A DNA stretch of 64,000 nt from an uncultured Gammaproteobacteria bacterium (GCA_964524845.1 CAZGFX010000001.1:139823-203822), one strand, 5' to 3'; shown: positions 3,001 to 28,137, numbered from the stretch's first letter. Notes: generated by a model from the letters alone, not told the origin. Translations and numbers: made by a program.

Positions 3001-6000
3001 CTGCAGTATCACCAAGTGTAACATACGAAGATTCTCCCGCTTTTCTTCGTTCGACCGTATATCCATTTTCTCCAGCAACATCATCCCATGAAATATTTAC
3101 TCTGTTTATTGAATGGTCATATGACGCACTAACACCTGTTGGTGTTGGTGGGGCTGGGTTTGTAACAGGAATTGCAAGAGGAGGCGCCGAAGGAACTGAG
3201 TGAAGAGTAACCATACCTACCGTCTTATCCGCCATAATACGATAATTATACGTATTTCCTGAAACAACAGTACTATCATTGTATGATGTTACGTTTGCAT
3301 CACGAGTTACCAATGTAGTATATGAACCATCTGTGGAAAGTTTTCTTTCTATTGTATATCCTGTCTCATCGGCAGTATCATCCCACGATAATTCAACTCG
3401 ACTTAGCACGTCATTATAATCACCTGTAAAGTTTGTCGGCGTGGTTGGACCCGGAATAGCGTCATATGCTACGAATACGGCATCAAGTGTTGGAGTATCA
3501 CCAAACACATCAGCATCAAATGATGCGCGAATCCTCAAATCACTCGTAACTGTAAATGTCGCTTGAGTTGCCTGAGTTAATGGAACCCATGTGTTCCCTC
3601 CGTCTCTACTATATGAATATGTTATATCTGTGTCTGCTGGTTTTGAATCAACTACTGAGAGTGCTACGTTATTTGCATACGTACCACCAGGAAGAATATT
3701 TGATGTCGAAAGAGTACCTGTTCCTGAAAGATCGTTTGTTTGTACTAATCTTGAATAATTATTGTCTCTATCCCATGTCATAACGATCGTATCATTAAAC
3801 ACGACTTCATTAGAATAGTTTCGTGAATAATGTTCTACGCCAGGAGCAGACGTACCCGAAACAACGTCATATCCAACAACAGAGTCATCAGATGGTTTCA
3901 CCCATTGATGTGTAACGGTATTAAATTTACTAAGCACCGTATCAAATCGATCGCCCGGACTCTCTTCCCAGTACGTATACATTGAACCACCTATAACGAC
4001 TACATTACACCACCCATAATCTGAATTATTCTGTACAGTACTTGAAATAATATCATACCCAACTGTATCATCACTTGGTTTAATCCATGTATTATTGCTT
4101 GTTTTCAACTTTGAAACAAGAAGTTTTCTGTCATTCTCTGTCCAAAATACATGTAGTTCGTTATTATATACTACTGGACGCGCTCCAAAACTAGATATAT
4201 TACCTGTTTCTGCAACTTGATCAAAACCAACTGCTCCATTTGATGGTTTCACCCATGCGCCACCAGAAAGTTTTGATACTACTATATCATAGGAGTTGCT
4301 TGCCACGATAAACTGAGACCAAAACACATACACGCTTCCGTTGTGATATATTGGTCGTGGCATTTTTGGATTAGTACCAACTGTTCCCGGATTCAAAACA
4401 TCAAATCCCGATACTCCGTTTGATGGCTTCACCCATCCATGACCAATGTCATCGAGCTTCGTAAGACACACATGAGAATCATCTCCATCTATGGCACAAC
4501 CTGATGTTCCAATATATGGGACTCCATTTATATTGCTTATTGTCACGTCGCGCGCTGTCGCTCCAGTAATTGCATCTGGATTATTAAGAATATTTCCCGC
4601 AGGAGATCTCCACTCTGATCCATCGTATCTAATTACTTCTATATTATTTGTCGTGCTATTATACCAAGCAAAATACAAATATCCTCCTGCTTCTATCATG
4701 GACAAACCATCAGGATAAGCAGTCGGACTTTCTAGAATCATATCGCTTCCTATAATAGTAGGGGCTGATGGTTTTACAAATCCATCGAGAGTACTACTAT
4801 ATTTGCTTACAGATATATTATGGCTACCATATCCTTGCCATGCAATATACAACTCATTATTATATGTTCCAACCATTAGATCCTCGTATGGTCTCGGATC
4901 TATAACTGTATTTACAATCTCAAAATCATCTGACCCACCAGTACCAGTGATATAAGCATAATCTCCAGAAACAAAAACCGATATCGGATTATCAATAACC
5001 GATCCTCCGTCTCCATCTACAATATTATCTGCATGAACAGGAGCGGTTGGAACTGATATATTTACAACCTCAAGGGCATCTGAAAGTCTGCTAGCAATAT
5101 AAGCATAATTTCCTGATACGAATATTGATCTTGGATCATTGAGTAATGCTCCTCCGCTTCCATTCGAAAGCCTTCCTCTATGGATAGGATTTGCTTTGTT
5201 TGTCACATCTATTATATTCATCGTTCCTGATGCTGTAAGATATGCATAATTTCCAAATACGTACACTGATGTTGGAGATATAAAATTTACTCCACCATTC
5301 AGTTTTCCTGCATGAACAGGCGCAGTCGGAACTGATATGTTTATTATTTCAAGAGCATTTGATCCACCCACAACATAAGCATAGCTTCCTGACACATATA
5401 CTGATAGAGGATAAGATAAGGCTGCGCCACCAGTACCATCAGTAATGCTTCCCGCGTGTGAAATATTTAGAGGATCAGACACATTTATAATTTCAAGCGC
5501 ATCGTCTCCTCTAGCTGTTACGTATGCATAACCTCCTGATACGAACACCGAGGATGCATGACGAAGTAATGTAGGACCAGTATCACGATTCTTTATATAA
5601 TCAGCAATAATAGGATTTGCTGGATCTGATATATTAAATACATAAAGGGCTCCCCAATGAGACATGGTTAACGTGTCGTTTCCTCCTGTTGTTACATAAG
5701 CATAATTTCCTGAAACAAACACCGATGTTGGTTGTCCATAACCAAATTCCTCCCAAAAAGTAGGCTCTACTGAATTACCTCCAACATACACGGGATTTGC
5801 TGGATCTGATATATTTAATATCTTCAATAAATATGTATCGGACGTTGGCCCATCTCCCCCTGCAACATAAGCATAATTTCCTGAAACGAAAACCGCATAT
5901 CCTCCGTATTCGCTACTTCCTTTGTGTTCTACTCTTCTTTGTAAAATCGTTTCATCATACGTCGCAGCTGTTGGAAGTTTTACGTTTCCAGCACCTGTAT

Positions 6001-9000
6001 CAATAACTGTATTATCAGCAACAAGTGTTCCGTCGGGAGCATCAAACGATGTATCATACACTTGTGTCTTCGTGTAGAACGAAACAGTGTTTGAAGTTAC
6101 CGATTGAATAGGACCATTAACAGCGTATATACGAACAGCATATGTTGCACCGGCCGTAAGACCTGCAAGAGGAATAGACTCTACATCCTCTCCTGGAGTC
6201 GCACACGTTGAAAATCCTCCACCATTCACAGAACACTCCACAACGAAATTTTCTTCATCGTCTGAATTGTCAGTCCACGAAAGATCGATGCTAGTGTCGG
6301 TAATATTATCAAACGCTAAATTTGTCGGGGCATCTGGAGGAGTGATTATGTTCGCCGAGATAATAAGATTATCAAGAGAAGGACTCGTACTAAGCGCTGT
6401 TGATGATAAGTTAGCACGCACCCTAAGTGTTCTCGTTGGTGTCAAAGGTACGCTAACGGATGGAGTTATACTCGTCCATGACGATCCGCCGTTTGTTGAG
6501 TATTCATATGTTATATCAGTATCCACCGGTTTTGTTTCCGTAACTGTGATCAAAACCGAGTCTGCATATTGAACAGGACTTTGCGCAATCACATTATCTG
6601 TTGTAAGCGTTCCTGTCAGAGTAACATAAGGATTATTATATGATAATTTTTTCACAATAATATCTCCCGCGCTTGTGTCTCTATGAATAAGAGCTCCTGT
6701 ATTTCCAAAAAATACGAGGGTATTTGCTGTACCGCTTGCGCTGTGTGTATCAACAGAAATAGTATTAAAACCATTTGTTCCGTCAGATGGTTTTTTCCAC
6801 GCACTACCACTTCCCATAACAGAAAGCACCTGAACTGGTTGACCCACAACAGGTTCTTCAAACCAAGATACATAGAAACTTCCTTTCTGAATATTTACAG
6901 ACGGATGATAACTATCTTGTCCTGGGGTACTTGAAACAGAATCAAATCCCGTACTTCCGTCAGATGGTTTCTTCCACGAGTGATCACTTGAATCATAATA
7001 TGACACAACTATTTCGCGTGAACCACTTGCTCCTTCTTCCCATACTGCGTACATCGTATTGTTCCACGAGATAATATACGGATTAACACTTATTGCTGGA
7101 GTGTTTGAAATCGCGTCATATCCTGCCGTATCATCACTTGGTTTTACCCATGTGTGAGACGTTGTGTTAAATTTAGATATTACGATTTCAGTATTTCCAT
7201 CATCATTTATATCTCGATCCCGTATCAAATAAAGATCGCCGTTATGAGTCGTTAGACGAGGAAATTCATCCTCGTTTGCATCACTACCAATACTATCATA
7301 TCCTACCGTATCATCACTTGGTTTTACCCATGCTCCTCCTGAAAGTTTCGTTATACAAATATCAGGTTGTCCTCCTATCGTACACTGAGATGCTATATAT
7401 GGAACATTATTTACATCATATATAAATGGTTGTTGTGCTCCTACTGTATAAACAGTATCATTTCCTGCTAAACCAGTACTAGGAGCAACCCACGAAGTTC
7501 CATTAAATTTCGAAACATGGAGATCCGTATCATCAGCGACCCACATCACATATGCTTCGTTATTAACAGTACCAGCTGTCAAAAACGTGTAATCAATACC
7601 TCCTCCAGTGTTCGTGAGATTATCAAAACCGGCTATTGTTGGAGCAGTCGGTCTGGTCCATTCTGAAAATGCCGCGTTAGGACGCGAAACACGAACATCG
7701 TCACCCTGATTCCAAGCTGCAAAAACCATAGAAGATGTAGATCCAATAGAAACTTCTGACACAGTCGTTCCTGTTGTTATGTTTTTCGGTATTGTACTTA
7801 AGTTTATTATTTCAAGTCCGCCAAACTGAGAGATTCCATCCCCTGATTTTGTAACAGAAACATAATTTCCTGATACGAAAACCGATGTTGGAATCATCAT
7901 AGAAGCGCCACCTTCTCCATCGCTCACACTTTCCGCGTGTTTTGGATTTGCTGGATCTGATACATCTACAATCTCGAGAGCGCTTGAACTCTGACTTGCA
8001 ACATAAGCATAATTTCCTGAAACATAAACAGATACTGGTGTATCTAATAATGCTCCTCCTACTCCATTTACAATACTTCCCGCATGCACTGGATTTGCTG
8101 GATCTGATATATTAATAATTTCAAGTGCGTTTGAAACTTGACTCACAACATATGCATAACTTCCTGATACAAAAACTGAGCGAGGATAAATCAATAAGGA
8201 ACCACCTGACCCATGTGTTATATTTCCAACGTGTGTCGGATTTGCTGGATCTGATACATCGATTATTTCTAAGGCGTTTGAGTTTCGAGCTGTAACATAC
8301 GCATAATTTCCTGAAACATAAACTGAATTGGCATAATCCAACAACGCACCTCCTGTTCCGTGCGAGATACTTCCAACCTGTGTTGGATTTGCAGGATCCG
8401 ATACATCAAATATTCCTAAATTTCCTCCTATTCCAAACCAAGCATTCTCGTCAGTTGCAACATATGCGTAATTTCCCGACACGAAGACCGATTGAGGATT
8501 AATCAACGAGCCACCAAAAACACCTCCTGTGTGAGTCGGGTTTGTCGGATCTGACACATCAACAACCTCTAGATATCCTACACCAAATCCACTAGTTCCG
8601 CCTCCTACAACGTATGCGTAACCTCCTGATACAAAAACGGACAATGGCTCAAAAAGAAGCGAACCACCACCCAAATCTTCTCTTGTTAAACTTCCTGCAT
8701 GAACTGGATTTGCTGGATCTGATATATCAACGACCTTCAAAGCATTTGATACTGTGCTTGCTATATATGCATAATTTCCATCAACAAAAACAGAGTTTGG
8801 ATTTTCAAGTAATGATCCAATATCATTAGTAATACTTCCTACGTGTGTTGGATCTGTTGGATCAAAAACATTTAGTATTTCAAGTGCATTAGAGTTTGAA
8901 CTTGCAACATACGCCGTAGTTCCTGATACAAAAATAGAATAAGCATAATCTAACAGAGCTCCTCCCGACCCATGCGATATGCTTCCAAGAGGAGTTGGAT

Positions 9001-10129
9001 TTGAAGGGTCTGTCACATCAATAGTTGCTACGCCGTCAACATCAGGAAATGTTAGAAACGCAGTGCTTCCTGTAACATATACGGAAGTTGCATAGTCTCC
9101 ATCAAATCCTCCGGCATAAACCGGCGTCAATGGATCCGTAACATCTACAATACTAATTCCAGAACCATCAGTAAGATATGCATAATTATTAAAAACAAAA
9201 ACGTCTGTTGGACTACTAAGTCCATTATACGGACCTCCGACTGGCCCTTCTATTACTTTTGATGCATGTGTAGGATTTGCAGGATCTGATATATCAACAA
9301 TTTCAAGTCCTCTGTGTTCAGAATTTTGACCAGAACCCCTAACAGAAATATATGCATAATTTCCATCAACAAATACACTAGTAGCATCTATAAGTATTGC
9401 TCCATCAGTACCATCTACTATACTTCCTGAATGAACAGGAGCTGATGGATCTGATATATCGATAATCTCTAATGCTTGTGAATTATTGCTTGTAACATAT
9501 GCGTAACTTCCTGACACATAAACCGATGTCGTTCCATCTAGCATTGCTCCACCCTCACCATTCCATACGCTTCCTGCGTGAACTGGATTTGCAGGATCCG
9601 ATACATCAATAACCTCAAAAAAACCATTGTTCTGACCTATTACATAAGCATAATTTCCGGACACATAAACAGAGGAAGGACAAGAAAGATATGGCGTACT
9701 TCCTCCACCATCAATAATACTACCAGTGTGAGTAGGATTTGCTGGATCTGATACATCAACAATTTCGAGTGCATTTGAATTACAACTTACAACATATGCA
9801 TATGTTCCCGAAACAAAAACATCATAAGGATAATTAAGTAACGCACCATCACGAACCTGTTCAATATTACCTTCATGAGATGCGCTCTGCTCCACCACAA
9901 GATCATTGTACATCGCTGTCTTCTGAAGAGTTGCATTTCCTGATACCGTATCAATTGTAGTGCCGTTTGCCGATAGGTGCGCCGCACTACTCATAGTAAA
10001 TGTCGTATCGGCCGCACTCACAGGAAATAAATTGGAAAATAAAAATGTTCCCGGTAATAAAAATGTCGCCACTTTAATAAAAAAGAACAGAGCAATAACT
10101 AGAGTTGCTCCTACACCTATTTTTTTCAT
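1..10129 (-). CDS. Giant secreted/cell-surface repeat protein, partial (start ATG at 10129-10127; runs off window start, >3370 aa). Contains dozens of LVIVD-like beta-propeller repeats, FN3-like modules, a G/D/T-rich pentapeptide repeat plus poly-Gly region, and C-terminal Cna-B/CarboxypepD_reg-like modules.
   Basis: The minus-strand frame starting at complement ATG 10129 (preceded by AAGGAGAGAG, an SD-like sequence) has no reported stop. The ORF track shows no long minus ORF over 2300-10129, consistent with a single open frame leaving the window. Hand translation in frame at both ends: N-terminus MKKIGVGATLVIALFFF (signal/TM), window start reads ...GHPQKPALTMTKKQTTQKK with no stop. The DNA repeat ggatttgctggatctgatacatc (reverse complement encodes DVSDPANP) recurs more than 30 times. 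Each repeat resembles YAYV(x)SNALEIIDVSDPANPxHxGS, an LVIVD/PF08309-type repeat. Confidence 0.8.
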   Translation of the reverse strand, partial: MKKIGVGATLVIALFFFIKVATFLLPGTFLFSNLFPVSAADTTFTMSSAAHLSANGTTIDTVSGNATLQKTAMYNDLVVEQSASHEGNIEQVRDGALLNYPYDVFVSGTYAYVVSCNSNALEIVDVSDPANPTHTGSIIDGGGSTPYLSCPSSVYVSGNYAYVIGQNNGFFEVIDVSDPANPVHAGSVWNGEGGAMLDGTTSVYVSGSYAYVTSNNSQALEIIDISDPSAPVHSGSIVDGTDGAILIDATSVFVDGNYAYISVRGSGQNSEHRGLEIVDISDPANPTHASKVIEGPVGGPYNGLSSPTDVFVFNNYAYLTDGSGISIVDVTDPLTPVYAGGFDGDYATSVYVTGSTAFLTFPDVDGVATIDVTDPSNPTPLGSISHGSGGALLDYAYSIFVSGTTAYVASSNSNALEILNVFDPTDPTHVGSITNDIGSLLENPNSVFVDGNYAYIASTVSNALKVVDISDPANPVHAGSLTREDLGGGSLLFEPLSVFVSGGYAYVVGGGTSGFGVGYLEVVDVSDPTNPTHTGGVFGGSLINPQSVFVSGNYAYVATDENAWFGIGGNLGIFDVSDPANPTQVGSISHGTGGALLDYANSVYVSGNYAYVTARNSNALEIIDVSDPANPTHVGNITHGSGGSLLIYPRSVFVSGSYAYVVSQVSNALEIINISDPANPVHAGSIVNGVGGALLDTPVSVYVSGNYAYVASQSSSALEIVDVSDPANPKHAESVSDGEGGASMMIPTSVFVSGNYVSVTKSGDGISQFGGLEIINLSTIPKNITTGTTVSEVSIGSTSSMVFAAWNQGDDVRVSRPNAAFSEWTRPTAPTIAGFDNLTNTGGGIDYTFLTAGTVNNEAYVMWVADDTDLHVSKFNGTSWVAPSTGLAGNDTVYTVGAQQPFIYDVNNVPYIASQCTIGGQPDICITKLSGGAWVKPSDDTVGYDSIGSDANEDEFPRLTTHNGDLYLIRDRDINDDGNTEIVISKFNTTSHTWVKPSDDTAGYDAISNTPAISVNPYIISWNNTMYAVWEEGASGSREIVVSYYDSSDHSWKKPSDGSTGFDSVSSTPGQDSYHPSVNIQKGSFYVSWFEEPVVGQPVQVLSVMGSGSAWKKPSDGTNGFNTISVDTHSASGTANTLVFFGNTGALIHRDTSAGDIIVKKLSYNNPYVTLTGTLTTDNVIAQSPVQYADSVLITVTETKPVDTDITYEYSTNGGSSWTSITPSVSVPLTPTRTLRVRANLSSTALSTSPSLDNLIISANIITPPDAPTNLAFDNITDTSIDLSWTDNSDDEENFVVECSVNGGGFSTCATPGEDVESIPLAGLTAGATYAVRIYAVNGPIQSVTSNTVSFYTKTQVYDTSFDAPDGTLVADNTVIDTGAGNVKLPTAATYDETILQRRVEHKGSSEYGGYAVFVSGNYAYVAGGDGPTSDTYLLKILNISDPANPVYVGGNSVEPTFWEEFGYGQPTSVFVSGNYAYVTTGGNDTLTMSHWGALYVFNISDPANPIIADYIKNRDTGPTLLRHASSVFVSGGYAYVTARGDDALEIINVSDPLNISHAGSITDGTGGAALSYPLSVYVSGSYAYVVGGSNALEIINISVPTAPVHAGKLNGGVNFISPTSVYVFGNYAYLTASGTMNIIDVTNKANPIHRGRLSNGSGGALLNDPRSIFVSGNYAYIASRLSDALEVVNISVPTAPVHADNIVDGDGGSVIDNPISVFVSGDYAYITGTGGSDDFEIVNTVIDPRPYEDLMVGTYNNELYIAWQGYGSHNISVSKYSSTLDGFVKPSAPTIIGSDMILESPTAYPDGLSMIEAGGYLYFAWYNSTTNNIEVIRYDGSEWRSPAGNILNNPDAITGATARDVTISNINGVPYIGTSGCAIDGDDSHVCLTKLDDIGHGWVKPSNGVSGFDVLNPGTVGTNPKMPRPIYHNGSVYVFWSQFIVASNSYDIVVSKLSGGAWVKPSNGAVGFDQVAETGNISSFGARPVVYNNELHVFWTENDRKLLVSKLKTSNNTWIKPSDDTVGYDIISSTVQNNSDYGWCNVVVIGGSMYTYWEESPGDRFDTVLSKFNTVTHQWVKPSDDSVVGYDVVSGTSAPGVEHYSRNYSNEVVFNDTIVMTWDRDNNYSRLVQTNDLSGTGTLSTSNILPGGTYANNVALSVVDSKPADTDITYSYSRDGGNTWVPLTQATQATFTVTSDLRIRASFDADVFGDTPTLDAVFVAYDAIPGPTTPTNFTGDYNDVLSRVELSWDDTADETGYTIERKLSTDGSYTTLVTRDANVTSYNDSTVVSGNTYNYRIMADKTVGMVTLHSVPSAPPLAIPVTNPAPPTPTGVSASYDHSINRVNISWDDVAGENGYTVERRKAGESSYVTLGDTAENATTYADTDIVKGFVYEYRVMSFALIGEAHSNSAPSDVVRADTRTSDPVVGAVMPPETTSTADTTISLIAKSNRETIDQVSFAADGMTFGAIKTISPAAVDVTTNSVVNITSSAIGGTSSYGTKSITVRARTSTGDLSLSSSFISQNNTETTTLENITVSASGVFNLTDPAANTGSVTFRPLFVGNPTKTTSMGATSLTPANTTIALQYRQCESPTCSGTFVDYSTPLNTNQNLVYIQFKVTLSNSDGTSTPTLFGPYTTLNARSYGTTTYQSGGGGGGGGGGGGGGSSGGGSTGGGDTGGGTTGGDTGGDTGGDTTGGDEGGDTTGGDEGDEGGDTTGGDEGDDGDQGDQGDEGGDTTGGDEGGDTTGGDTTGGDTTGGDTTGGDTTGGDTTGGDTTGGDQGGDTTGGDTTGGDEGGFFETLIDSFTGPTTESQYGENMTPLSLDMLYTPSEGQPMTIAIPALLGSGIVYTLTIPGTVTVPLSFSFNEKPLSDIAFTNSDFMRNPIDGTFIDITAIQTDINQIYTDFANDKAIECSIQLTDKVLENIRPESLSLVYVADDGTLTTIPTTFDPNTKTLSARLDHFTVFGLIAERLFEATEESPYEEVTTIVESTPIGNIGSVFVATAKNIDAGIRKIIKSAPAPVQKALTTIQEEVLDNPVIERTAQITAPIAAAGAVTATAAATASAGTLLPAIQLLFTALTSAVTRRRRSISVGVVYHSGTKAPLPLSTIRAYKITQNKKQLVATKVTDKNGQYVLTLPPGTYYIEASKPHFVFPSKMLASTSDDGQYLNIYKGETVTIKQNETTFIRPIPLDKEEFTKEETEKLLKEYSRDALSKTLATIGIWVSAIAFIITPHYITLILFIVNLVVPKAISYFIRRTMGVKYGFIKTKTNKKGISYAVVRLLDAEYGRPLDTTLSTPKGMYLMPAIPGAYTVNVQKEGFVPLTSPKKDYKTKDKMLYITDTLELDPLKQQSVSSSSGHPQKPALTMTKKQTTQKK
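1740..2200 (-). repeat. Low-complexity coding repeat inside the giant protein: (T/E)GGD(T/E)-type pentapeptide repeats ending in a poly-Gly run of about 14 residues
   Basis: Visible DNA periodicity (ggtgatacaacnggcgg... and ccgcc x n). The plus ORF 1989..2186 (poly-P/S) and minus ORF 1729..2214 are alternate-frame artefacts of this repeat. Confidence 0.7.
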
Positions 10130-10589
10130 TCTCTCTCCTTTGATATATGAATATGTTGTTTCGCTTTTTCCTGTATCAGGATTCACACGAACGAGATTAA
10201 GTTCCTCATCTGTGTATTCACTAAACAAGTTGGGTATATTAATGATCGACGCGCACAAATAAAGCGCGAACTCTTGTACAGCAAGTAATATGTTAAGAAC
10301 AAAAGCCTTTTTCCCCGTTTGTTTTTTTAAACGAGCCCGTATTGTAATCGTCTTTTCAAGGGACGCATATAACAGGTTTTTTAATTTGGATAACATCATA
10401 TAAAAAATAGGTTTATTATATACCCATATTATACGATATTTCTTTATCTTTAGCCATATTCATATGACCCATACGTTGACAAATGGGCTAAAAACTGTGT
10501 TATTATGGCTAATAGTTATCAACAGCCCACCAATACAAAAAATTCGTCAATCGTTTCAATAAACGGATTCTTTTATATTGGCCAAGAAA

Positions 10590-16502: not shown

Positions 16503-17441
16503 TTATTTTTTCTTATTAGTGACAATTTTATCCATCTTGTATGTCTCAGATGGATTTTTTTGTTTCCATTCTTTTAAAAAATTCGGATCTTTTTCAATGG
16601 CTCGCGCCACAAAATTCTGATCCTCATCGAATGAAATGAACTTCGTCACTCTCCGAGTCGTATCGGCATGTCCGGAAAGTCGATAAGCATCCGTGAACTC
16701 ATCGTAACCGAAGCCCCTAAGTACTTTTCCGTTGACCCAGAGGCGTGAATCGAATATACGATGCCCTATCAGAACCTCCTCGCTAGAGAAGAAAAACTCC
16801 TGAAGCGAAGAACCTGATTCGAAGTACGCTTCGAAGTCATAAATCATCTCTCCCGAAAGATTTACGAACATCATGGCTCCGTTTCTGGAAACCATTCCGC
16901 GATACGCGGCAACTGCGTAACTTCCCGGATTGATTCGGAACGCCCCCTTCAGGCAATCACTCATCACATATCGTTCTGTGATGATCTGATAACGAGACGA
17001 GTCTGTCGTAAGATCCGTCCAATCATCAAACCCAACGTTTGATAACAACTGACGAATCTGTTCCGGAAGTCCTGAGTTCCACTTTCTGAGTACGACGATT
17101 ATCGTATCCGTTTCCGCGTAATCAAATATGATCGCGGATGTGTACGTCCCGTCCGACAGAAAAGCGTATCCGTTCGGCTTCATCCATTGTACGAACAAAA
17201 CCTGACGATAAGATGTTTCACCGGGACGCTTATGTATAACCCATAAGTTCCCGTGCTGTTCCTGCAAGTTTTTTGCAATGCAGTACACCTGCCCGTTTAT
17301 CTCCATAAGATTTAAACGAACCGATGCCTGCGACGCATCAACCGCAAACATGGCTTTCGCTTCTTCTTTCGAGTCGATTAAAAAATCGCACGAAGTCGCA
17401 CAAAGCAACATAATAATTGAAATGAACATTAATGATTTCAT
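16503..17441 (-). CDS. Hypothetical secreted protein or lipoprotein
   Basis: Signal peptide MKSLMFISIIMLLCATSCDF; no recognisable domain. Confidence 0.6.
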   Translation of the reverse strand: MKSLMFISIIMLLCATSCDFLIDSKEEAKAMFAVDASQASVRLNLMEINGQVYCIAKNLQEQHGNLWVIHKRPGETSYRQVLFVQWMKPNGYAFLSDGTYTSAIIFDYAETDTIIVVLRKWNSGLPEQIRQLLSNVGFDDWTDLTTDSSRYQIITERYVMSDCLKGAFRINPGSYAVAAYRGMVSRNGAMMFVNLSGEMIYDFEAYFESGSSLQEFFFSSEEVLIGHRIFDSRLWVNGKVLRGFGYDEFTDAYRLSGHADTTRRVTKFISFDEDQNFVARAIEKDPNFLKEWKQKNPSETYKMDKIVTNKKK

Positions 17442-20500: not shown

Positions 20501-20661
20501 TCATACATGATGTTCCTTATGATGCGCTCGCGCGCCTCCTAGATCACAATATTCATTGGACGGACAAGGGAAATCAAATAAAAATACTAAAAGAAAATCT
20601 AGCAAAGGACTGGCTTTCAGACATTTCAAAAACGATTGATTTTTTTGTGGGAAACACCTAA
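17599..20661 (+). CDS. mfd: Transcription-repair coupling factor Mfd, with a divergent N-terminal region
   Basis: Walker A GDVGFGKTEVA, DEEQRFGV, RGRVGRS, the TRG motif (LEIRGVGNLLGTEQHG) and about 245 aa of C-terminal extension after the helicase. This matches Mfd rather than RecG. Confidence 0.85.
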   Translation: MGMIEKHTKNVFGIKNDTILAWHLFISAQNNPNKRFIHICEKNTVIYSISFLLSFFNELYEKHISISKLKKDSSSSSEVFNVFQSSSSGIILLHRDYCNEHFPSTKTINESSLNIDTRENYSPQKIGEKLIVLGYERVSHTPNHGEFSIHGSSIEIRESNENKDERIRIYFDENSIEKININNTDVSKISIPPRFIDNLPRTESIFSIISENDEISLYQKSDETLFMLPDDIKCTIYSETKNTEEKNTIQDIKNTPHHAKLIIDAIKEKINEKWHVIICCTEENERNVRAACRRHDFDPSKYLRVLPEDQIILINSFSDAARRTLLIRDTSFVYGEYRNEKKKQRIDTAFIMSIRPHDYVVHSDHGIGIFHGMVMASVENIYREYFDIRYAENDKLLLPIDQAEKISRYIGIEHPKIHRLGGTSWHETTLKIKEDAIITAHTMLKNHAIRTITSANSFNKSHPDEQSITTEFPHPETDDQLKAINDVYRDLAQTTPMDRLVCGDVGFGKTEVAVRAAARVVFANYQVALICPTTILAQQHFDTFTERFSKYGVEIELLSRFRSSSEQKESVKKIKEGTSKIVIGTHRLLSSDIHFHNLGLIIIDEEQRFGVEHKELLRQIKTGTHAMTMTATPIPRTLHLSLAGIRDMSVIQTPPHGRKEIITDIAHYDLSIIKETINRELERNGQVYYLFNSVANIPIKVKELQKLIPEARIESVHGQLPEEDIARVMHAFDTGVVDVLVCSTIIENGLDIPNANTLIVEHANDFGLSQLHQIRGRVGRSDRQAYALFTYDSQILVGNAWKRLEALSTSSSLGGGFELALRDLEIRGVGNLLGTEQHGRVSAIGITMYNKLITHAINEIQSGVPRTRSHDVVIDLPIEYGIPSSYIHDEIYRLKLYQALAGIADTDSLAEEFLAIEKKYGALPHHITNLHMILNMKLRCQNSPIKSIEMKKIRTAGDEIREKIIITFIHDVPYDALARLLDHNIHWTDKGNQIKILKENLAKDWLSDISKTIDFFVGNT

Positions 20662-21122
20662 ATATCACGTATATCCGTGATAATTGAAGATCCTCCTAGG
20701 TGATCTGAGTGTATATATCCCAGTATCTCTGATGAGGGTTCTTGAACGTTGTTTCTAGCTATATGAGCTATAGCGGTATCGTTCATTGATAAATATATAT
20801 TCTCGTTTCCTGAGAGAATATCTTTATCAATCATAGGATTGATTTGTATCGTGTTTTCGATATATGTTTCAGGTTCATCTGTTCTTATTGCACGAGACGC
20901 TATACGCTCTCCCGATGGATCGTATGTGTAGGAGTATGTGTTTTTCTCTGTGTTGATTGTGGACATACGAAGAGTAGAGTCGTATACGAACTGTTTGTTT
21001 ATACATCCAAACCCTTCTTCTTCACATGTTTCAGATATCATGTTTCCTGCGTTATCGTATGCGAACGTCTTATTGAGAACGTCGTCTTTATACATACGAG
21101 TAGCGGCTTGTGGTTGACGCAT
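20658..21122 (-). pseudogene. Orphan truncated RHS core fragment (154 aa), paralogous to an internal segment of the RHS gene at 22448-22925. It stops exactly at the RHS-core point where the main gene continues (..ITDIRDI* vs ..ITDIRGTIQVQRDYYPFGE). It has no DPxG motif and no toxin tip.
   Basis: About 90% nucleotide identity over about 480 bp with 22448-22925. Protein identity is MRQPQA[A/V][T/A]RMYKDDVL...HSDHLGGSSIITDIR. Its stop codon abuts the mfd stop (convergent). Confidence 0.7.
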
Positions 21123-21140
21123 GCCATACTCAAAACGTTC
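20665..21140. repeat. Direct repeat copy B of the RHS core segment (copy A is at 22448-22925)
   Basis: Aligned by eye; homology begins at acgtatatccgtgataattgaag, immediately at the mfd stop, and ends near 21135. Confidence 0.75.
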
Positions 21141-21142
21141 TT

Positions 21143-21529
21143 TTATTTTTTTATTATTTTATTATTTTTTCTTAAAATCCTATAATTTCTAATCAGGAAA
21201 AACAATAATAAAACAAGAGGGCCAAATCCGATGAACAACTGACACATAATTTCTCCAGAACAAATTTTATACACACAAGTAGTAGCCAAATAATATGTGG
21301 TTGGTATTAGATAGAACAGGCCGGTTATCATAAAAACCTGTTTTTGATCTTTGTGTTTTTTAAGTAAATAAAAAAATATTAAAATTGTGATAAGAGTAAA
21401 AGGTATTATAATAACAAGATATGATATATACCACCACCCTCCTAGAAGATCTGAAATTAACAAAAACATTATTATTGGAATTAATAAAATAAATCCAATA
21501 AAATAAATAAAAAACTTGTTATTTTGCAT
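21143..21529 (-). CDS. Small multi-pass membrane protein (128 aa, 3-4 TM helices), a candidate immunity protein for the RHS C-terminal toxin
   Basis: ATG lies 3 nt downstream of the RHS stop (21533-21535), giving tight translational coupling. Very hydrophobic, no known domain. Position is typical of RHS/CDI immunity genes. Confidence 0.6.
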   Translation of the reverse strand: MQNNKFFIYFIGFILLIPIIMFLLISDLLGGWWYISYLVIIIPFTLITILIFFYLLKKHKDQKQVFMITGLFYLIPTTYYLATTCVYKICSGEIMCQLFIGFGPLVLLLFFLIRNYRILRKNNKIIKK

Positions 21530-21532
21530 ATA

Positions 21533-24500
21533 TTATCGTGATTTTTTTATAAACTGATTCCAAACATTAGTATTATGCATATTAAGATGTTTAACAATTC
21601 CTCTTAAAACCGGAAGAATTATTTTATTTGCAGATGCATTTACTTCTATATTCTTTGCATTTTTTTCAGAGCGCTTTTGTCCGGTTTTTGTAAAATCTAC
21701 AAAACCCAAAACATTTAAGCCATAATCAATGGAAGCAAAACCACCCTGAACATTTTCCTTTGGATCATATACATTATAAATGTTTTTTACTGACGATGGA
21801 TTTTTTATAGTATATTCATCTCTCACAGGAACAGCGAGTAAAATTAACTTGTCTACGCTTTTCTTTAAGCCTCTATTTATTGTTTCTATAGCAACATTTC
21901 CTCCGTGACTAAAGCCTATAATATTTAATTCTTCGTCCTCAGCAAACTTATAATCATTAATGTAATTAGCAACTCCAATAGCCGCTTCTGAGCGCGCGGT
22001 CGGATTATTGTCTCCAGACCAACTCAATACAGTATACGCATATTTTTCGTTTAAATCTTTTGCGCTTTGTTGAATAAAAATATCATCAAAAGATTCTTTT
22101 CCACAATCAGTACAATCTTTTTTAAGTGGTTGAGTGCCGTTTAAAGCAATTGTTAACTCTCCAGTCGGATCCACAAACTTAACAGGATTATTCCTCGCAT
22201 ACGCGTAAGCATTCCATTGCTGAGGATCTGTGAAGTAGTTTTCACTTGATGTTAAACGAGCAACAGGATCCACACTTATAAACCTCCCAATCTCAGGGTG
22301 ATAATAGCGTGCGTGGTAGTAGTATAAGCCTGTTCCTTCATCTTTTTCTTGTCCTGTGAATTGGTACTTGGTGTTGAAGTCCGGTGTTCCTAGAGATTCA
22401 TCAATTCTAGTCTCTCCAAAGGGATAATAGTCCCTTTGCACTTGTATTGTACCACGTATATCCGTGATAATTGAAGATCCTCCAAGATGATCTGAGTGTA
22501 TGTATCCCAGTGTCTCTGATGAGGGTTCTTGGACGTTGTTTCTTGCTATATGAGCTATGGACGTATCATTCATAGATAGATATATGTTCTCATTTCCTGA
22601 TAACAAGTCCTTATCAATCATTGGATTGATTTGGATAGTGTTTTCGGTGTATGTTTCAGGTTCATCTGTTTTTATTGCACGAGATGCTATACGCTCTCCA
22701 GATGGATCGTATGTGTAGGAATATACAGTTTTCTCTGTGTTGATTGCGGACATACGAAGAGTAGGGTCGTATACGAACTGTTTGTTTATACATCCAAATC
22801 CTTCTTCTTCACATGTTTCTGATATCATGTTTCCTGCGTTATCGTATGCGAAGTTTTTATAAAGAACGTCGTCTTTATACATACGCGCAACGGCTTGTGG
22901 TTGTCGCATGCCATACTCAAAACGCGTATTTCCTTTCGTTAATATGTTTCCTGTTTTTGAGTATGAGAAACGAGTAGACTGGTCTGTTTCTCCTGCAACA
23001 ACGTGTTCTGATTCTAGACGATCAAGGTCATCATATATGTATTCAGCTTTTTTCGCTGTTAGATTATCAACTTTGTTTATTATGTTTGTGATATTTGCGT
23101 TTTGATCATATGAATATGATATATCTTGCAATACTTCTCCTCTAGTGTTTGTTGTTATCTTGCGTGTAAGGCGATAATCTGTGTTTGCGGAGCGAGTGAA
23201 CGATTCTGTGTCTCCGTTGCCATATACGATATTGGAAACTTGTCCTGTTGGTTCATAAGAGACTTGGGAAATGATTATGTTTTCATCTTTTATCAGTGAT
23301 GTGAGTTTTCCATAATCATCGTATTCATACGAAACGACTGTTCCTAAAGTATCAGGAAGAGTTATTGTTAATAATCTGTCTAAATGATCGTATATAGCCG
23401 TACTTTGATATGATTCATTATCAATCGTCTTTATTTCGTTAATGATATTACCGTGAGTATCATACTGATATCTGATATCAATATCAGGAGTTATTATTCT
23501 TATTGGTTTTCCAATTTCAAGTCCATCGGTTCCATAAAAATATGTTGTATAATCAATTCCATTTCTGCTTTCTTTTGTTGGTCTGTTTAAAATATCATAC
23601 TCATATGAAATTACGTTTCCATTGGGATCGGTAGATGAGATTATGTTATTGTTTACATCATAAGCATAATGCCACGCCCGAACTAGTCCCGGTCCGCCCT
23701 CCATAAATCCTCCAGAAAGCTCCGTTGCGTATGTTCTTCTTCCATATCCATCATACCCGAATGAACGAGTATTTCCTTCGGCGTCTTGAAATCCGACAAG
23801 AAGTCCTTTTGCATCGTGTCTATATATTGTGTTTTGTTCTACTTCTTTATTGTATTCGGTAAGTGTCATAATGTTTCCATAAGCATCTGTAATCGTCTTT
23901 GAATTGATTCCACGAGGGTTTGTAACGATTGTTTCAAATCCATTATACGCATACGATGTTGTTCCTGTCTGTGTTGCAACTGTCAAAGGTCTTGTGAGCG
24001 CATCGTATGTTGTGGTTGTTCCCGGGCGAATTGTAGACCAGTTTGCAGTATCAAACGAATCAGACGAGTTAAAATAAGGATGAGATGAGTATATGGTATT
24101 CCCTTTTTCATCATAATGAGTATCTGTAACAACATAACTCGATGGTGAAAACTGTTGTTTTGATTCAAGTGTTCTGCCAAACCCATCTCTATGTGTAATA
24201 GCACGAACATAAGAAGAAGGATTGTTTACATGTATATGTGTTCGAACTTCCGTATTTTGAGGAATTACAGTATCCCTATACACATAAGTATTTTTAAGAA
24301 CAGGAGTTTCCGTTGAACTTATATCTGAAACAGAGTACGAGAGAGCGCGTCCGAGTCCATCGTACGAATACCAAGCGGTAAGGCCTGTTGGAGCAGTTAC
24401 AGACAAAGGATGACCAAATGAATACTCCCATGTATATGTGGTAACTAGATCTGGACTTGCTGATCCCCCGTTTTCATTTGATTCGGTAACGAAATAATGA

Positions 24501-27500
24501 TGAATCGGATCGTATTCAACAACTGTAATCGCTCCGTTTGGACGAGTTATTTGTATTACATTTCCATATGAATCATATTCATATTGTGTGGAACGATCAG
24601 ATGGAGTAATAAAATCGTATTCTTTTTCAATTGTCTTGTCTCCGATGTTTATATTTCCAAGCGTCTCAAATCCATCGTAGAAATATTCGGATCGCGCAAC
24701 ACGATTTACATACCAATCATAAAGTTCCTGCCATGATGGATATGCGATAATATGTGCTGATTCGTTGAGTGCATATCCTGTTTTTGTTGTGCGAGTGTCT
24801 CCTGAAATATCAGAGAACGTACCGGCAGATGAATTATAATTCACTTTTCCGTATTCTGTTTTTTCAGTAACACGAGCAAACGAATCATACGTATATCCTA
24901 CCGCAACTGATGAGGAGTCCTTTGTTGAGATATCATACTCAGATCCTATGGCAACGTCTCCGTTATTTAGAGATATTAAATTATGACGTGTATAGGATGT
25001 TGAAAGCATAGAACCTGTACTTGAATACATCTCTGTCTTATAAGAAGTTTTCAAAAGCCTGTAATCATCAATACCCTCGTCTCCTGTTGCTCCATTTCCT
25101 TGATGAAAATACGAAACGGAATAAGTACCATCTCCATATACTTCTTTTGTTAATCCAAACCCTGCAAACTCCGATCTCATAGCCATATCGTATGAATTAG
25201 GACCATCTTCAAAATACCATACTCCGTTTTTATACTGATATGTCGTTGTCATTGGAGATCCGAACCCGGTATCAACCGTCATCTGTTCGACAGTCTGAAT
25301 AACTCTCGGTAGATTAGGATTTGAAAGACTCCCGTTCGCTTCTTTGTAATGAGATGATGGTTTATATGAAAGAGCAATACTTCCTCCCTTGCCGTTTGAT
25401 ACGTTCGTCATGATATCTGGGAGTTTGTATTTATGGAGTAATGAATACATCTTTCTATTATAATTTCCCGTGTTTGGGCTTAAATAATCAGAATCATAAG
25501 TATCATGAACCCCCATAAGCACATCAACAAGACCATCTGCGTTTATGTCAATATGCTCTGATCCACCAAATTGATAATATGCACCATTTACCATGAGTTT
25601 ATTTAAAAACATATATATCCACTGTCCGCTTCCACCATACAAAAAGTTCCAACCATTAACAGTGTTATTTATATATAAAGCATTGTATCCGACCAAATCA
25701 GGATATCCATCTCCATTCCAATCAATAATTTCAACCGCTTGTGTTCCGGCTGTCGAACCAGAATCATAAAAAGTTGGGACAGGTGCTTGCCATAAAGATG
25801 TTTCAACAAATTTTGACCCATTATTTAAGAGAGTTTTTCTAATAGCCGTATTATTTAGAGTATAAGAAATAACTACATCCTCTAGACCATCGGCATTCAC
25901 ATCCATATACCGTGTTCCACCCTCTCTAAAATAATCATTTTGATTAAAAACAGGATTAAAATATTCTTGTTTCCATGACATTTCTGTACCCCTATAACCA
26001 AATGTCATTCCCCATGACATATTTTCTCTATTAAGAGCAAAGCCCTCTTGGTTATTTGAAAAACCCTGATAATATTGATTATGAATAAAATCAAGAAGAT
26101 TATCACCGTTTAAATCAACGCTGTTTACACCAGAACTACTATAATTACCTTCAAAAAACGAGAATAAATAATTTGTTGCTCCATTCTGTCCCGATGGCGT
26201 ACAAGTATTCCAATCAATTTTTTGAGAATTCGAACCAACGGACATTTCCGGAACAGTATCATTATCAACATCAATATATTCATAACCACCATATTCGTGA
26301 TTATCTGAATTTAAATAAAGATATTTATTTGTACTAAAATAAGGAATTTGGGAAATATTACATTGATTTGTAATATTTGTGAAACCGTCCGTTGTTTGTG
26401 TCGTGAGTTCAGGAATTCTAGTCCATACTGTATTGTTTTTGTATACGCTTTTTCTGTTTGATATAGGATTATTGTTTTGATGAGGATAAATTGAATTGTT
26501 ATATGAGTTGTGGGAATACAAAATATCAGGATATGCATCCCCATTTATATCAATAAAACGAGCCGGACGAGAATTATTTCCATAAGTGACGGTTTCAGGC
26601 ATCACCTCAAGAGAATAATTATATGCCGTTGGAGACGCGTCTCCTTGTTGGTATGTTAGATTTGTTTCAGGAAGCGCCGAAAAACCACCGGTTCCATTAG
26701 ACATGTATGGATGAACGGATGACAAAAGATATCTGTTTGTTTCGTTTGATTTGGTGTATGTGATATCCCAGTAATATTTCACTATATTATCATATACGTA
26801 TGATATTTTATTTACCTGGTACTTAAAATATCTTTTAAACCCAGCGTTGTAACTAACTCTCTTATCGGGTCGCTCGTTCGCAACACTTGTCCCTTCATAA
26901 AAAGGACTGAATCTTATTTCATAAGAATTAGATCCGCCAAAAACGATTTGTTTCGGATAAGCGACACCTTCTTCTATATGATAATTATATGTAATTGTGT
27001 TTCCGTGTGTATCAATTACTTGATCAAGAAGCCATTCGTATGCTCCATCATAAATTACTGATGGGTTAATTGGATTTAATGGTATGTTTGGTTTTATCTG
27101 TTTATTATTCGTTCCGAAAACATATCTTGTGCCATTTCCATCAATCACTTCAAATGTTCCCGAGTTTGTTGAACCAGCTTGATAATTAAATAATATTTTA
27201 TAATTAGCATTATTATTTCCTGTGATTGAGAAATCATTTTTATATGCCAAAGTACCAGAATCTATTGAACAACCATTTGTTTGATCATATTTTTCTTTAA
27301 ATTCAAAAGAACCTGATGGAAGTTGTGCTGTAAAATAAGAACAGTTTGAGCTCTGAGTACCAGATACGTTATATAATTGATCTGTCCCACGATTGTTTTT
27401 AAGAGTAATTTTTGGCATTGATACATCCCACCCGTGTGCAATTGTTGTAAAGTCATTCGAATTTGATGAGTCATAGAAAAGCGCAACAGAAGGTGTTATT

Positions 27501-27958
27501 GATGAAACATTTTCCGGTATAGGAAATCCTAATGTGTAATTAAAAGAACCCGTTGCTTTATCAACCCCATAAGTCTCTTTTATCTCCATCGGCGAATACG
27601 AGTTCTTCTTTACACCCGTATTTACAGGAGTATAAAGCTCTCCAATATCTATGCCATTTGGGTTTGTTTCTGTTGGAAGACTCTCCGTTTCGTTTTGTGT
27701 TTGTTCTGTATTTTGGTTTTGATCATCCTGACCATTTTCTTCTCCTTGTGTATTATTCGTCTCATTATTCGATAAATCAACGTTTGTTTGGTTTGTTTCA
27801 GCCAATTGATCGGTGGAATTTCCTGACGATTGTGCTGTTTCATTAACTACTGGATCACTTACAATTGGTGTTTCATCCGTAGCAAATGATGCATACGGAA
27901 AAATAAATGTCGGTATAATAATAATATACACGATCATTCGAATAATTTGTTTTGGCAT
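21533..27958 (-). CDS. RHS/YD-repeat polymorphic toxin (2141 aa). It has a signal peptide, an N/Q/T-rich low-complexity linker, FG-GAP/VCBS-like beta-propeller repeats, many YD repeats, an RHS core ending in PVKFVDPTGE (the PxxxxDPxG autoproteolysis motif), and a C-terminal alpha/beta-hydrolase (GFSHGG) predicted lipase/esterase toxin domain of about 230 aa.
   Basis: YD repeats (YTYDALTRPLT, YEYDILNRP, YQYDTHGN, YSYDQNANI, YIYDDLDRL...). FG-GAP-like DINGDAYPDIL, DLNGDNLLDF, DVNADGLEDV, DWNGDGYPDL, DINADGLVDV. Core end ...YYHARYYHPEIGRFISVDP...NPVKFVDPTGE. C-terminal GxSxG nucleophile elbow NIIGFSHGGNVA with downstream candidate Asp/His residues. Confidence 0.9.
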   Translation of the reverse strand: MPKQIIRMIVYIIIIPTFIFPYASFATDETPIVSDPVVNETAQSSGNSTDQLAETNQTNVDLSNNETNNTQGEENGQDDQNQNTEQTQNETESLPTETNPNGIDIGELYTPVNTGVKKNSYSPMEIKETYGVDKATGSFNYTLGFPIPENVSSITPSVALFYDSSNSNDFTTIAHGWDVSMPKITLKNNRGTDQLYNVSGTQSSNCSYFTAQLPSGSFEFKEKYDQTNGCSIDSGTLAYKNDFSITGNNNANYKILFNYQAGSTNSGTFEVIDGNGTRYVFGTNNKQIKPNIPLNPINPSVIYDGAYEWLLDQVIDTHGNTITYNYHIEEGVAYPKQIVFGGSNSYEIRFSPFYEGTSVANERPDKRVSYNAGFKRYFKYQVNKISYVYDNIVKYYWDITYTKSNETNRYLLSSVHPYMSNGTGGFSALPETNLTYQQGDASPTAYNYSLEVMPETVTYGNNSRPARFIDINGDAYPDILYSHNSYNNSIYPHQNNNPISNRKSVYKNNTVWTRIPELTTQTTDGFTNITNQCNISQIPYFSTNKYLYLNSDNHEYGGYEYIDVDNDTVPEMSVGSNSQKIDWNTCTPSGQNGATNYLFSFFEGNYSSSGVNSVDLNGDNLLDFIHNQYYQGFSNNQEGFALNRENMSWGMTFGYRGTEMSWKQEYFNPVFNQNDYFREGGTRYMDVNADGLEDVVISYTLNNTAIRKTLLNNGSKFVETSLWQAPVPTFYDSGSTAGTQAVEIIDWNGDGYPDLVGYNALYINNTVNGWNFLYGGSGQWIYMFLNKLMVNGAYYQFGGSEHIDINADGLVDVLMGVHDTYDSDYLSPNTGNYNRKMYSLLHKYKLPDIMTNVSNGKGGSIALSYKPSSHYKEANGSLSNPNLPRVIQTVEQMTVDTGFGSPMTTTYQYKNGVWYFEDGPNSYDMAMRSEFAGFGLTKEVYGDGTYSVSYFHQGNGATGDEGIDDYRLLKTSYKTEMYSSTGSMLSTSYTRHNLISLNNGDVAIGSEYDISTKDSSSVAVGYTYDSFARVTEKTEYGKVNYNSSAGTFSDISGDTRTTKTGYALNESAHIIAYPSWQELYDWYVNRVARSEYFYDGFETLGNINIGDKTIEKEYDFITPSDRSTQYEYDSYGNVIQITRPNGAITVVEYDPIHHYFVTESNENGGSASPDLVTTYTWEYSFGHPLSVTAPTGLTAWYSYDGLGRALSYSVSDISSTETPVLKNTYVYRDTVIPQNTEVRTHIHVNNPSSYVRAITHRDGFGRTLESKQQFSPSSYVVTDTHYDEKGNTIYSSHPYFNSSDSFDTANWSTIRPGTTTTYDALTRPLTVATQTGTTSYAYNGFETIVTNPRGINSKTITDAYGNIMTLTEYNKEVEQNTIYRHDAKGLLVGFQDAEGNTRSFGYDGYGRRTYATELSGGFMEGGPGLVRAWHYAYDVNNNIISSTDPNGNVISYEYDILNRPTKESRNGIDYTTYFYGTDGLEIGKPIRIITPDIDIRYQYDTHGNIINEIKTIDNESYQSTAIYDHLDRLLTITLPDTLGTVVSYEYDDYGKLTSLIKDENIIISQVSYEPTGQVSNIVYGNGDTESFTRSANTDYRLTRKITTNTRGEVLQDISYSYDQNANITNIINKVDNLTAKKAEYIYDDLDRLESEHVVAGETDQSTRFSYSKTGNILTKGNTRFEYGMRQPQAVARMYKDDVLYKNFAYDNAGNMISETCEEEGFGCINKQFVYDPTLRMSAINTEKTVYSYTYDPSGERIASRAIKTDEPETYTENTIQINPMIDKDLLSGNENIYLSMNDTSIAHIARNNVQEPSSETLGYIHSDHLGGSSIITDIRGTIQVQRDYYPFGETRIDESLGTPDFNTKYQFTGQEKDEGTGLYYYHARYYHPEIGRFISVDPVARLTSSENYFTDPQQWNAYAYARNNPVKFVDPTGELTIALNGTQPLKKDCTDCGKESFDDIFIQQSAKDLNEKYAYTVLSWSGDNNPTARSEAAIGVANYINDYKFAEDEELNIIGFSHGGNVAIETINRGLKKSVDKLILLAVPVRDEYTIKNPSSVKNIYNVYDPKENVQGGFASIDYGLNVLGFVDFTKTGQKRSEKNAKNIEVNASANKIILPVLRGIVKHLNMHNTNVWNQFIKKSR
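22448..22925. repeat. Direct repeat copy A (inside the RHS gene) of the segment duplicated at 20665-21140
   Basis: See copy B. Confidence 0.75.
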
Positions 27959-28137
27959 AATGGGTTTTAATAAAAATTAAACATGTCTATTATCATATAT
28001 TCATCAAAACTCTCAAGCGCCGTCGGTGGATAAGTTAAATAAATAAGCCAAAAATTGGCAATAGTTTTCCACAGTGGGAAAAGCATCTTATTTTTTATTT
28101 CAATTCGTATCAAAATATATGATTAAAAAGAATTTAT

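Follow-up and report, generated by a model that had tools for sequence, protein, structure and literature searches.

An RHS polymorphic toxin locus with a lipase-like alpha/beta-hydrolase tip, a candidate membrane immunity gene and a displacement scar

Identification of the locus

A polymorphic toxin locus was examined in a 64,000-nucleotide stretch of DNA from an uncultured Gammaproteobacteria bacterium (GCA_964524845.1, CAZGFX010000001.1:139823-203822; the whole stretch is referred to as the window). The locus is built around an RHS/YD-repeat gene (21533..27958, minus strand), called as an open reading frame (ORF) and identified by its Pfam, NCBIfam and Protein Data Bank (PDB) relatives. Its 2141-amino acid product ends in a 208-amino acid domain, hereafter the tip (residues 1934-2141; 21536..22159, minus strand), that resembles a minimal alpha/beta hydrolase of the lipase or esterase kind. 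Downstream on the same strand lie a 128-amino acid polytopic membrane ORF (21143..21529), which on position, hydrophobicity and an AlphaFold model is the candidate cognate immunity gene, and a tip-less RHS core fragment ORF of 154 amino acids (20658..21122). We consider that the locus encodes a Sec-exported RHS polymorphic toxin with a lipase-like tip and a membrane immunity protein, carried on a cassette acquired by displacement, and place the probability of this model as a whole at about 0.62. A first-pass annotation of the same DNA had reported three ORFs here, all of which were recovered at the same positions. The start of the membrane ORF lies 3 nt beyond the RHS stop codon, as had been noted, and 20 nt separate its own stop codon from the ATG of the fragment.

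The tip belongs to a widespread family of toxin modules

The first-pass annotation had described a tip of about 230 amino acids with a GFSHGG nucleophile motif. The motif was found as the sole GxSxG sequence (GFSHG, residues 2015-2019), and the length is corrected here to 208 residues. A word-indexed homologue search with the tip alone returned no match. When 1.84 billion representatives were searched exhaustively with HMMER, 528 relatives were retrieved at E <= 1e-3, including 85 at E <= 1e-10, with the best at 2.4e-22 and 44% identity. At least 83 of the top 150 homologues are located directly after an RHS ...NNP....DPxG junction, on proteins that range from 200 to 3229 amino acids, and several others, at least seven in number, carry the tip behind VENN or ANN(L/A)T junctions. 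Judged by these junction motifs, the latter proteins are carriers of the CdiA/MafB type, so the tip is not confined to RHS proteins. Because it is attached to many unrelated RHS carriers as well as to VENN-type carriers, the tip can be regarded as a polymorphic-toxin module, in agreement with the toxin assignment made in the first-pass annotation.

Members of the family share the signature GT ... WSG.N...AR ... (H/F)SHGGN ... GTP.R.DY ... D.VQ ... R....N ... H.....W. Among the tip-bearing loci that were fetched, the closest RHS cores belong to Patescibacteria (Altimarinota and Uhrbacteria) and are approximately 30-33% identical to that of the window, compared with approximately 40% for the tips. 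Homologues of the tip are also present in Saccharibacteria, where RHS toxins have already been remarked on (PMC6031116), and in Gracilibacteria, Peregrinibacteria, Nomurabacteria and Rickettsiales, and large numbers of them are found in Paenibacillus, Acidobacteriota and Bacteroidota with a free-living way of life. The tip family is thus large and spread over many phyla, and full-text searches of the literature on DUF7379, ABhydrolase and RHS-lipase, -esterase or -phospholipase toxins recovered no experimental work on any of its members.

Fold and predicted catalytic residues of the tip

Profile comparison and structure prediction give good support to the assignment of the tip as an alpha/beta hydrolase; within this fold, a lipase is the leading guess, and other options remain. 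When the PDB was searched with the family profile, the minimal lipase Lip_vut1 (6nkc) ranked first (E 3.6e-4), followed by LipA-type lipases from Pseudomonas and Bacillus. In the match to 6nkc the nucleophile serines are aligned, and the acid position of the family falls opposite an SDY segment (YSTSDYIV), the Asp of which we take to be the catalytic acid of that lipase, equivalent to Asp133 in Bacillus subtilis LipA. An AlphaFold2 model of the tip, based on a 45-sequence alignment, has a mean pLDDT of 82.5 and a pTM of 0.83; it displays a strand-Ser-helix elbow (strand 78-83, helix 85-95, in tip numbering) and positions the acid after a strand formed by residues 124-131. Every one of the 50 listed Foldseek matches that carry a stated function is an alpha/beta hydrolase, and the best has an E-value of about 1e-4. 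The tip has a G/A-x-S-x-G nucleophile elbow with an acid and a histidine following in canonical order on an alpha/beta core, and the hydrolase fold that had been proposed earlier is borne out; lipases head the matches of the family profile and of the predicted structure alike. A phage Hoc-like protein that ranked first when the PDB was searched with the tip by phmmer (4.2e-5) was rejected as spurious, as no such match was obtained with the family profile.

The predicted nucleophile is Ser2017 within GFSHGGN (codon at 21908..21910, minus strand), which corresponds to Ser84 of the family and is present in 150 of 151 family sequences; Cys takes its place in one homologue, and the adjacent His85 is found in all 151. 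Glu2068 (21755..21757, minus strand) is the predicted catalytic acid. It occupies position 135, at which a column count of the hmmalign alignment gave Asp in 147 of the 151 sequences. The change from Asp to Glu is conservative, yet an oddity. Other alpha/beta hydrolases, such as cholinesterases and the Geotrichum lipase, use Glu as the catalytic acid. His2124 (21587..21589, minus strand) is the predicted catalytic histidine, corresponding to His191, which is retained in 123 of 125 aligned family sequences.

Twenty-four relatives of the tip were compared with Pfam singly. Of these, 16 matched PGAP1, 14 Abhydrolase_1, 10 Palm_thioest, seven DUF7379 (best 5.1e-5), five Tle3 (weakly; best 1.4e-5), four Lipase_3 and two Lipase_2. 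The window tip itself has no significant Pfam family and did not match the Tle models even at E <= 10. DUF7379 (PF24096), which is also a precomputed domain on some homologues, was likewise not matched by the window tip. As relatives match this model, the tip family and DUF7379 overlap, with the window sequence lying beyond the reach of the model.

The "Tle-like" label given to the tip earlier is retained as a working analogy, and as a classification it is dropped, given that the window tip has no Tle Pfam match and no type VI secretion system (T6SS) is encoded nearby. By analogy, Tle1-Tle5 and their Tli immunity proteins would still be the closest functional counterpart, as these systems likewise direct a GxSxG serine hydrolase at the envelope as a toxin and counter it with an envelope-located immunity protein. 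The window tip differs from Tle1-Tle5 in having approximately 200 instead of 400-650 amino acids and in residing inside an RHS shell without a T6SS context, and Tli proteins are periplasmic proteins or lipoproteins, whereas the window candidate is polytopic. Alpha/beta-hydrolase tips of classical polymorphic toxins were predicted in silico in 2012 as Tox-ABhydrolase-1 to -3 (Zhang et al., PMC3482391). Compared by description only, Tox-ABhydrolase-3 is similar to the window tip in being reported as closest to lipases (PMC3482391). Tox-ABhydrolase-2 and -3 are tied to the soluble immunity proteins SUKH, Imm66 and Imm69, whereas the family of the window tip is tied to membrane or lipoprotein ORFs outside Pfam. 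With respect to minimal lipases (the B. subtilis LipA family and Lip_vut1), the tip family shows approximately 12% identity, has HSHGGN where 6nkc has AHSMGG, and possesses the family-specific motifs WSG.N...AR, GTP.R.DY and D.VQ; moreover, the tip is a toxin module, in contrast to the secreted digestive enzymes of the LipA type.

Architecture of the RHS carrier

The 6.4-kb RHS reading frame is wholly intact. Residues 1-26 (27881..27958, minus strand) form a predicted Sec-type signal peptide, MPKQIIRMIVYIIIIPTFIFPYASFA, with cleavage ahead of TDE; it was called by eye from a basic n-region, a hydrophobic core and a small-x-small cleavage site. The signal peptide is followed by a low-complexity linker rich in Asn, Thr, Glu and Gln (residues ~27-115; 27614..27880, minus strand), delimited by a composition count, and then by a domain resembling SpvB and the N-terminus of TcB (residues 135-334; 26957..27556, minus strand), which matches PF03534 above its gathering score (E 6.7e-8). 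FG-GAP beta-propeller repeats occupy residues 686-762 (25673..25903, minus strand) and were recognized by FG-GAP_3 (1.6e-11, residues 686-756) and FG-GAP (1.3e-4). The YD/RHS repeat shell extends over approximately residues 1100-1843 (22430..24661, minus strand), with approximate boundaries derived from a motif scan, the Pfam and TIGR repeats and alignment to Rhs cores in the PDB. Ten YD motifs lie between residues 1126 and 1703, RHS_repeat (PF05593) matches four stretches (E 3.9e-28, best at 1433-1463), and the NCBIfam model YD_repeat_2x (TIGR01643) matches five (E 1.7e-26, best at 1381-1409).

The Rhs-associated core domain (residues 1844-1933; 22160..22429, minus strand; TIGR03696, E 1.1e-23) retains both of its conserved Asp motifs, RYYHPEIGRFISVDP and PVKFVDPTG. 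The second of these is the PxxxxDPxG junction motif (residues 1925-1933; 22160..22186, minus strand), for which a regular-expression search found a single occurrence in the protein, confirming the earlier placement of this motif at the end of the RHS core. The E-values for RHS_repeat, SpvB, FG-GAP_3 and the associated core place the RHS identity of the protein far above chance. Its solved relatives in the PDB are T6SS Rhs proteins and TcB-TcC cocoons, and a Pfam scan found no PAAR or VgrG domain in the protein.

Two known systems resemble this architecture. The Sec-exported RHS toxins of monoderm bacteria, of the WapA type in B. subtilis and also Streptococcus suis (PMC12704120), have in common with the window protein a signal peptide, a YD shell, a DPxG core, a variable C-terminal toxin and the lack of a T6SS; their immunity gene directly downstream has its candidate counterpart in the 128-amino acid ORF. 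The window protein differs in placing an SpvB domain and an FG-GAP propeller ahead of the shell and in bearing an alpha/beta-hydrolase tip instead of a nuclease, and its immunity candidate is an integral membrane protein. The SpvB domain, FG-GAP propeller and RHS shell are shared with the TcB-TcC cocoons (TcdB2-TccC3, YenB-YenC2), and the associated core aligns to TccC3 and YenC2 with E-values of 1e-12 to 1e-15; as in the engineered TcdB2-TccC3 fusion, all of the parts are present in a single chain. In contrast to Tc toxins, a Sec signal peptide is present. A scan that covered 21 of approximately 35 larger window ORFs found no gene for TcA, a T6SS or a type VII secretion system. Because a signal peptide is present and neither T6SS nor TcA genes flank the locus, Sec export is the simplest route, and the carrier is most simply read as an RHS toxin of the WapA kind that leaves the cell by way of Sec and has a TcB-like front end. 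The immunity-like gene downstream and the displacement scar described below argue for an interbacterial and not an insecticidal role.

The membrane ORF and the partners of tip homologues

A Kyte-Doolittle scan of the 128-amino acid ORF found three strongly hydrophobic segments, and a low-confidence, single-sequence AlphaFold model shows four helices (3-29, 31-58, 62-91 and 102-127) and a basic tail, consistent with the three to four transmembrane helices that had been assigned to it earlier. Searches of 5.8 billion clustered proteins recovered no homologue of this ORF save itself on contigs of the same arrangement. To place it among the partners of other tips, the next ORF on the same strand was examined at 79 genome loci encoding tip homologues. 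At most of these loci a small ORF begins between -20 and +150 nt from the stop codon of the toxin gene. The downstream ORFs form mutually unrelated families. In Paenibacillus and relatives (18 loci) they encode proteins of 175-218 amino acids with three transmembrane segments, and in a cluster centered on Acidobacteriota (12 loci) the core members encode proteins of approximately 120 amino acids, also with three transmembrane segments. In Bacteroidota (12 loci) the products are of approximately 137 amino acids and, in the two sequences inspected, begin with a signal peptide followed by a Cys, as in lipoproteins. Individual polytopic proteins of 94-139 amino acids are encoded in Patescibacteria, Campylobacterales and Rickettsiales. 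Seven representative downstream proteins were compared with Pfam without a match, and by analogy the Paenibacillus, Acidobacteriota and Bacteroidota groups are candidates for three new immunity families.

As envelope-located partners recur beside tip homologues, the 128-amino acid ORF is likely to encode the cognate immunity protein, and because these partners are membrane-embedded or lipoprotein-like, the tip would act at the membrane or envelope and not in the cytoplasm. The immunity role proposed in the first-pass annotation gains from the observations that this ORF was nowhere found without an RHS neighbor and that small membrane or lipoprotein ORFs follow the tips in other phyla. At least three partner families lie outside Pfam. 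A single characterized toxin/immunity pair would annotate hundreds of genes and would also show how a small membrane protein can neutralize a lipase.

A direct repeat and the probable history of the cassette

The tip and the membrane ORF are enclosed, together with the associated core, by a 475-bp direct repeat with a spacing of 1787 bp, identified by a repeat scan and DNA alignment. Copy A is located inside the RHS gene (residues 1679-1837; 22450..22924, minus strand), and copy B (20663..21137, minus strand) is the displaced core fragment at the DNA level. The copies are approximately 90% identical as DNA and 91.7% identical over 157 amino acids by tblastn. Copy B starts 5 nt past the stop codon of the immunity gene (21143-21145), and its other end is 1 nt away from the mfd stop codon (20659-20661). 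The first-pass annotation had described the fragment as a copy of the core segment immediately N-terminal to the toxin junction. It is indeed a diverged duplicate of the core, and its counterpart lies approximately 96 residues upstream of the junction, before the associated core. Relative to RHS residues 1684-1837, the fragment differs at 49 of 462 nucleotides and 15 of 154 amino acids (dS 0.39, dN/dS 0.134). These values indicate that the copies diverged under purifying selection in working genes, and a recent tandem duplication in place was rejected on their account as the origin of the fragment.

In the displacement model described for such loci, a circular intermediate made up of a piece of core, an incoming tip and an immunity gene enters the resident gene by recombination and pushes the old end downstream (PMC2935791); recombination of orphans has also been described (PMC3967940). 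The repeats spaced by 1787 bp, the fall in GC content and the divergence of the copies as functional genes all point to acquisition of the cassette by C-terminal displacement. The GC content is 0.375 for the window, 0.319 for the tip and 0.238 for the 128-amino acid ORF, and the 1-kb bin with the lowest GC content in the entire window (21001-22000, 0.299) falls on the tip/immunity cassette. Behind the fragment, neither an alternative tip nor an alternative immunity gene was found; the fragment stops before the associated core and abuts mfd. Of the three parts of an orphan module (core fragment, alternative tip and immunity gene), the core fragment is the only one present; the fragment is thus a scar and not a usable orphan module, and its sequence is best read as the scar of a C-terminal displacement. 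A metagenome scan with the core segment for a sibling allele carrying the old tip returned one distant relative only, at 41% identity. Recombination between the repeats, by way of the fragment, could delete the cassette.

The region covering the tip, the 128-amino acid ORF and the start of the fragment (21036..22482) is matched at 100% by two independent read-set assemblies, fragment-specific variants included, so the junction is not an assembly artefact or chimera. Both of these Logan assemblies (SRR12133404 and SRR12133403) end at 21036, beside a 26-nt exact repeat (21040-21065 = 22827-22852). This repeat breaks short-read assemblies, and loci of this kind are probably under-assembled in metagenomes.

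Proposed mechanism and alternative explanations

According to the model that we favor, the 2141-amino acid protein would be exported by Sec, and its YD shell, closed by the propeller, would enclose the C-terminal tip, as in the solved Rhs and TcB-TcC structures. The Rhs-associated core, a presumed aspartyl autoprotease, would cut after PVKFVDPTG and free the 208-amino acid tip, a minimal serine hydrolase with the predicted triad Ser2017/Glu2068/His2124 and its closest relatives among small LipA-type lipases. On contact with a neighbor, the tip would reach the outer face of the cytoplasmic membrane of the target, where it would most likely hydrolyze membrane-lipid esters. The four-helix 128-amino acid protein, presumably co-transcribed, would bind the tip or keep it out and so shield the membranes of the producer and of its kin. 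The cassette, consisting of a 475-bp core fragment, the associated core, the tip and the immunity gene (1787 bp in total), may have been gained by homologous recombination of an implied 1787-bp circle, leaving a second, diverged 475-bp core copy downstream. The displaced old tip would since have been deleted, giving rise to the tip-less 154-amino acid fragment that abuts mfd. Of this model, the domain architecture, the fold and conserved triad positions of the tip, its distribution over carriers, the synteny of small downstream ORFs and the diverged repeat were observed; cleavage, the lipid substrate, toxicity, immunity and delivery are inferred.

Several observations weigh against this model. 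The lipase assignment is built on family-level profile and fold matches at approximately 12% identity, and the window tip itself yielded only sub-threshold Pfam matches (PGAP1 0.029, Palm_thioest 0.034, Abhydrolase_1 0.12). At the predicted acid position, Glu occurs in the window tip and in no other of the 151 family sequences, and the AlphaFold2 model places His2124 in a predicted helix instead of a loop. Support for the immunity role of the 128-amino acid ORF comes from position and analogy, as no similarity to the downstream proteins of other loci was detected by BLAST, phmmer or hhalign (probability <2%; five cluster alignments of downstream ORFs were used in the latter comparison). ORF calling at the Altimarinota and Gracilibacteria loci of the comparison set used table 11, possibly not the right code for these groups. 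Finally, the model would have the shell deliver its cargo without a TcA or T6SS partner.

Four other explanations of the locus were considered. The matches of relatives to PGAP1 and palmitoyl-thioesterase-like models could be taken to mean that the tip, though toxic, is no lipase and has another envelope ester or thioester as its substrate, such as the O-acetyl or D-alanyl groups on peptidoglycan or teichoic acids or the acyl groups of lipoproteins. We regard this as unlikely: sequence profile and structure independently put the same minimal lipase first, members of the family also match the Lipase_2, Lipase_3 and Tle3 models, and a membrane-lipid target fits integral-membrane immunity partners best.

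Somewhat more doubtful is a host-directed effector, by which a lipid-auxotrophic episymbiont (Patescibacteria) would open the membrane of its host or free fatty acids and lysolipids from it, with the 128-amino acid ORF shielding the scavenged membrane. The Patescibacterial origin of the closest RHS cores among the fetched loci is in keeping with such a role, as are the tip homologues in Saccharibacteria, Gracilibacteria, Peregrinibacteria, Nomurabacteria and Rickettsiales, the PilM, giant surface proteins and LCP enzyme encoded in the window, and the small size (368 kb) and low GC content of the contig. For the probable episymbiont suggested in the first-pass annotation, the similarity of the cores is a circumstantial hint. 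However, many members of the tip family come from Paenibacillus, Acidobacteriota and Bacteroidota, which are free-living, and a small ORF always lies next to them, the signature of toxin/immunity pairs directed at siblings; displacement scars of tips are typical of competition loci (PMC2935791). If the organism that carries the locus proves to be a Patescibacterium, a candidate effector would be gained for the contact between epibionts and their hosts, of which little is understood. A bolder form of this idea, to which we give slim odds, has an ultrasmall lipid-auxotrophic episymbiont place a minimal lipase on the host membrane by means of a Sec-exported, TcB/TcC-like cocoon without TcA or a T6SS. 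The RHS locus would then be a device for feeding or parasitism and not a weapon of sibling competition, and the four-helix ORFan would represent a new class of intramembrane lipase inhibitor that guards the scavenged membrane.

A decaying or inactive locus, with an enzyme disabled by the Asp-to-Glu change, a pseudogene for a fragment and a chance AT-rich frame for a 128-amino acid ORF, would account for the Glu unique to the window tip, for the low GC content (23.8%) and missing homologues of that ORF and for the absence of core and tip from the fragment, but is very improbable given the intact 6.4-kb RHS frame, the retention of all remaining family signature residues in the tip, the function of Ser-His-Glu triads in other alpha/beta hydrolases, and a 128-codon open frame that starts 3 nt past the stop codon and encodes four helices and a basic tail, the pattern seen beside homologues.

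The locus is genuine yet fairly ordinary, and otherwise much as specialists would expect of an rhs locus. It is of moderate interest for its large hydrolase-toxin family, apparently novel membrane partners, unique Asp-to-Glu change and clean displacement scar.

Genomic context and other features of the window

The immediate neighbors of the locus are housekeeping genes. One flank encodes a radical-SAM enzyme, an LCP enzyme, Der, Pth, one ORF without assignment and Mfd, and the convergent mfd gene is overlapped by 4 nt by the 154-amino acid fragment ORF. On the opposite flank are DprA, TopA, RelA/SpoT, ParB and ParA, and PilM, ClpB and surface proteins are encoded farther away in the window. 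Apart from the fragment, the 64-kb window holds no further piece of the RHS core, and no additional copy of the tip or of the immunity gene was found there. Use of genetic code 25 (UGA = Gly) was rejected, as four of 35 ORFs terminate with TGA and table 11 leaves the long ORFs intact. A consensus scan located a promoter-like site upstream of the RHS gene (TTGAGA-16-GATAAT, 10 of 12 matches; 27989..28016, minus strand), which is a mere candidate, given that shuffled versions of the region hold more such sites than the region itself.

The ORF without assignment lies between pth and mfd (16503-17441, minus strand), encodes 312 amino acids and matched nothing in Pfam at E <= 1e-5. The left edge of the window cuts through a stop-free frame (2-10459, minus strand) that spans at least 3486 amino acids; it begins with an N-terminal hydrophobic segment and continues with many repeats of the form ...YAYV.S..S.ALEIVDVSDPANP..., which resemble LVIVD-like propeller blades, and its sequence marks it as a putative giant surface protein. 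Another large surface protein, of 738 amino acids (56151-58367, plus strand), contains four FG-GAP repeats together with a TIG domain and has a peptidoglycan-binding domain at its C-terminus.

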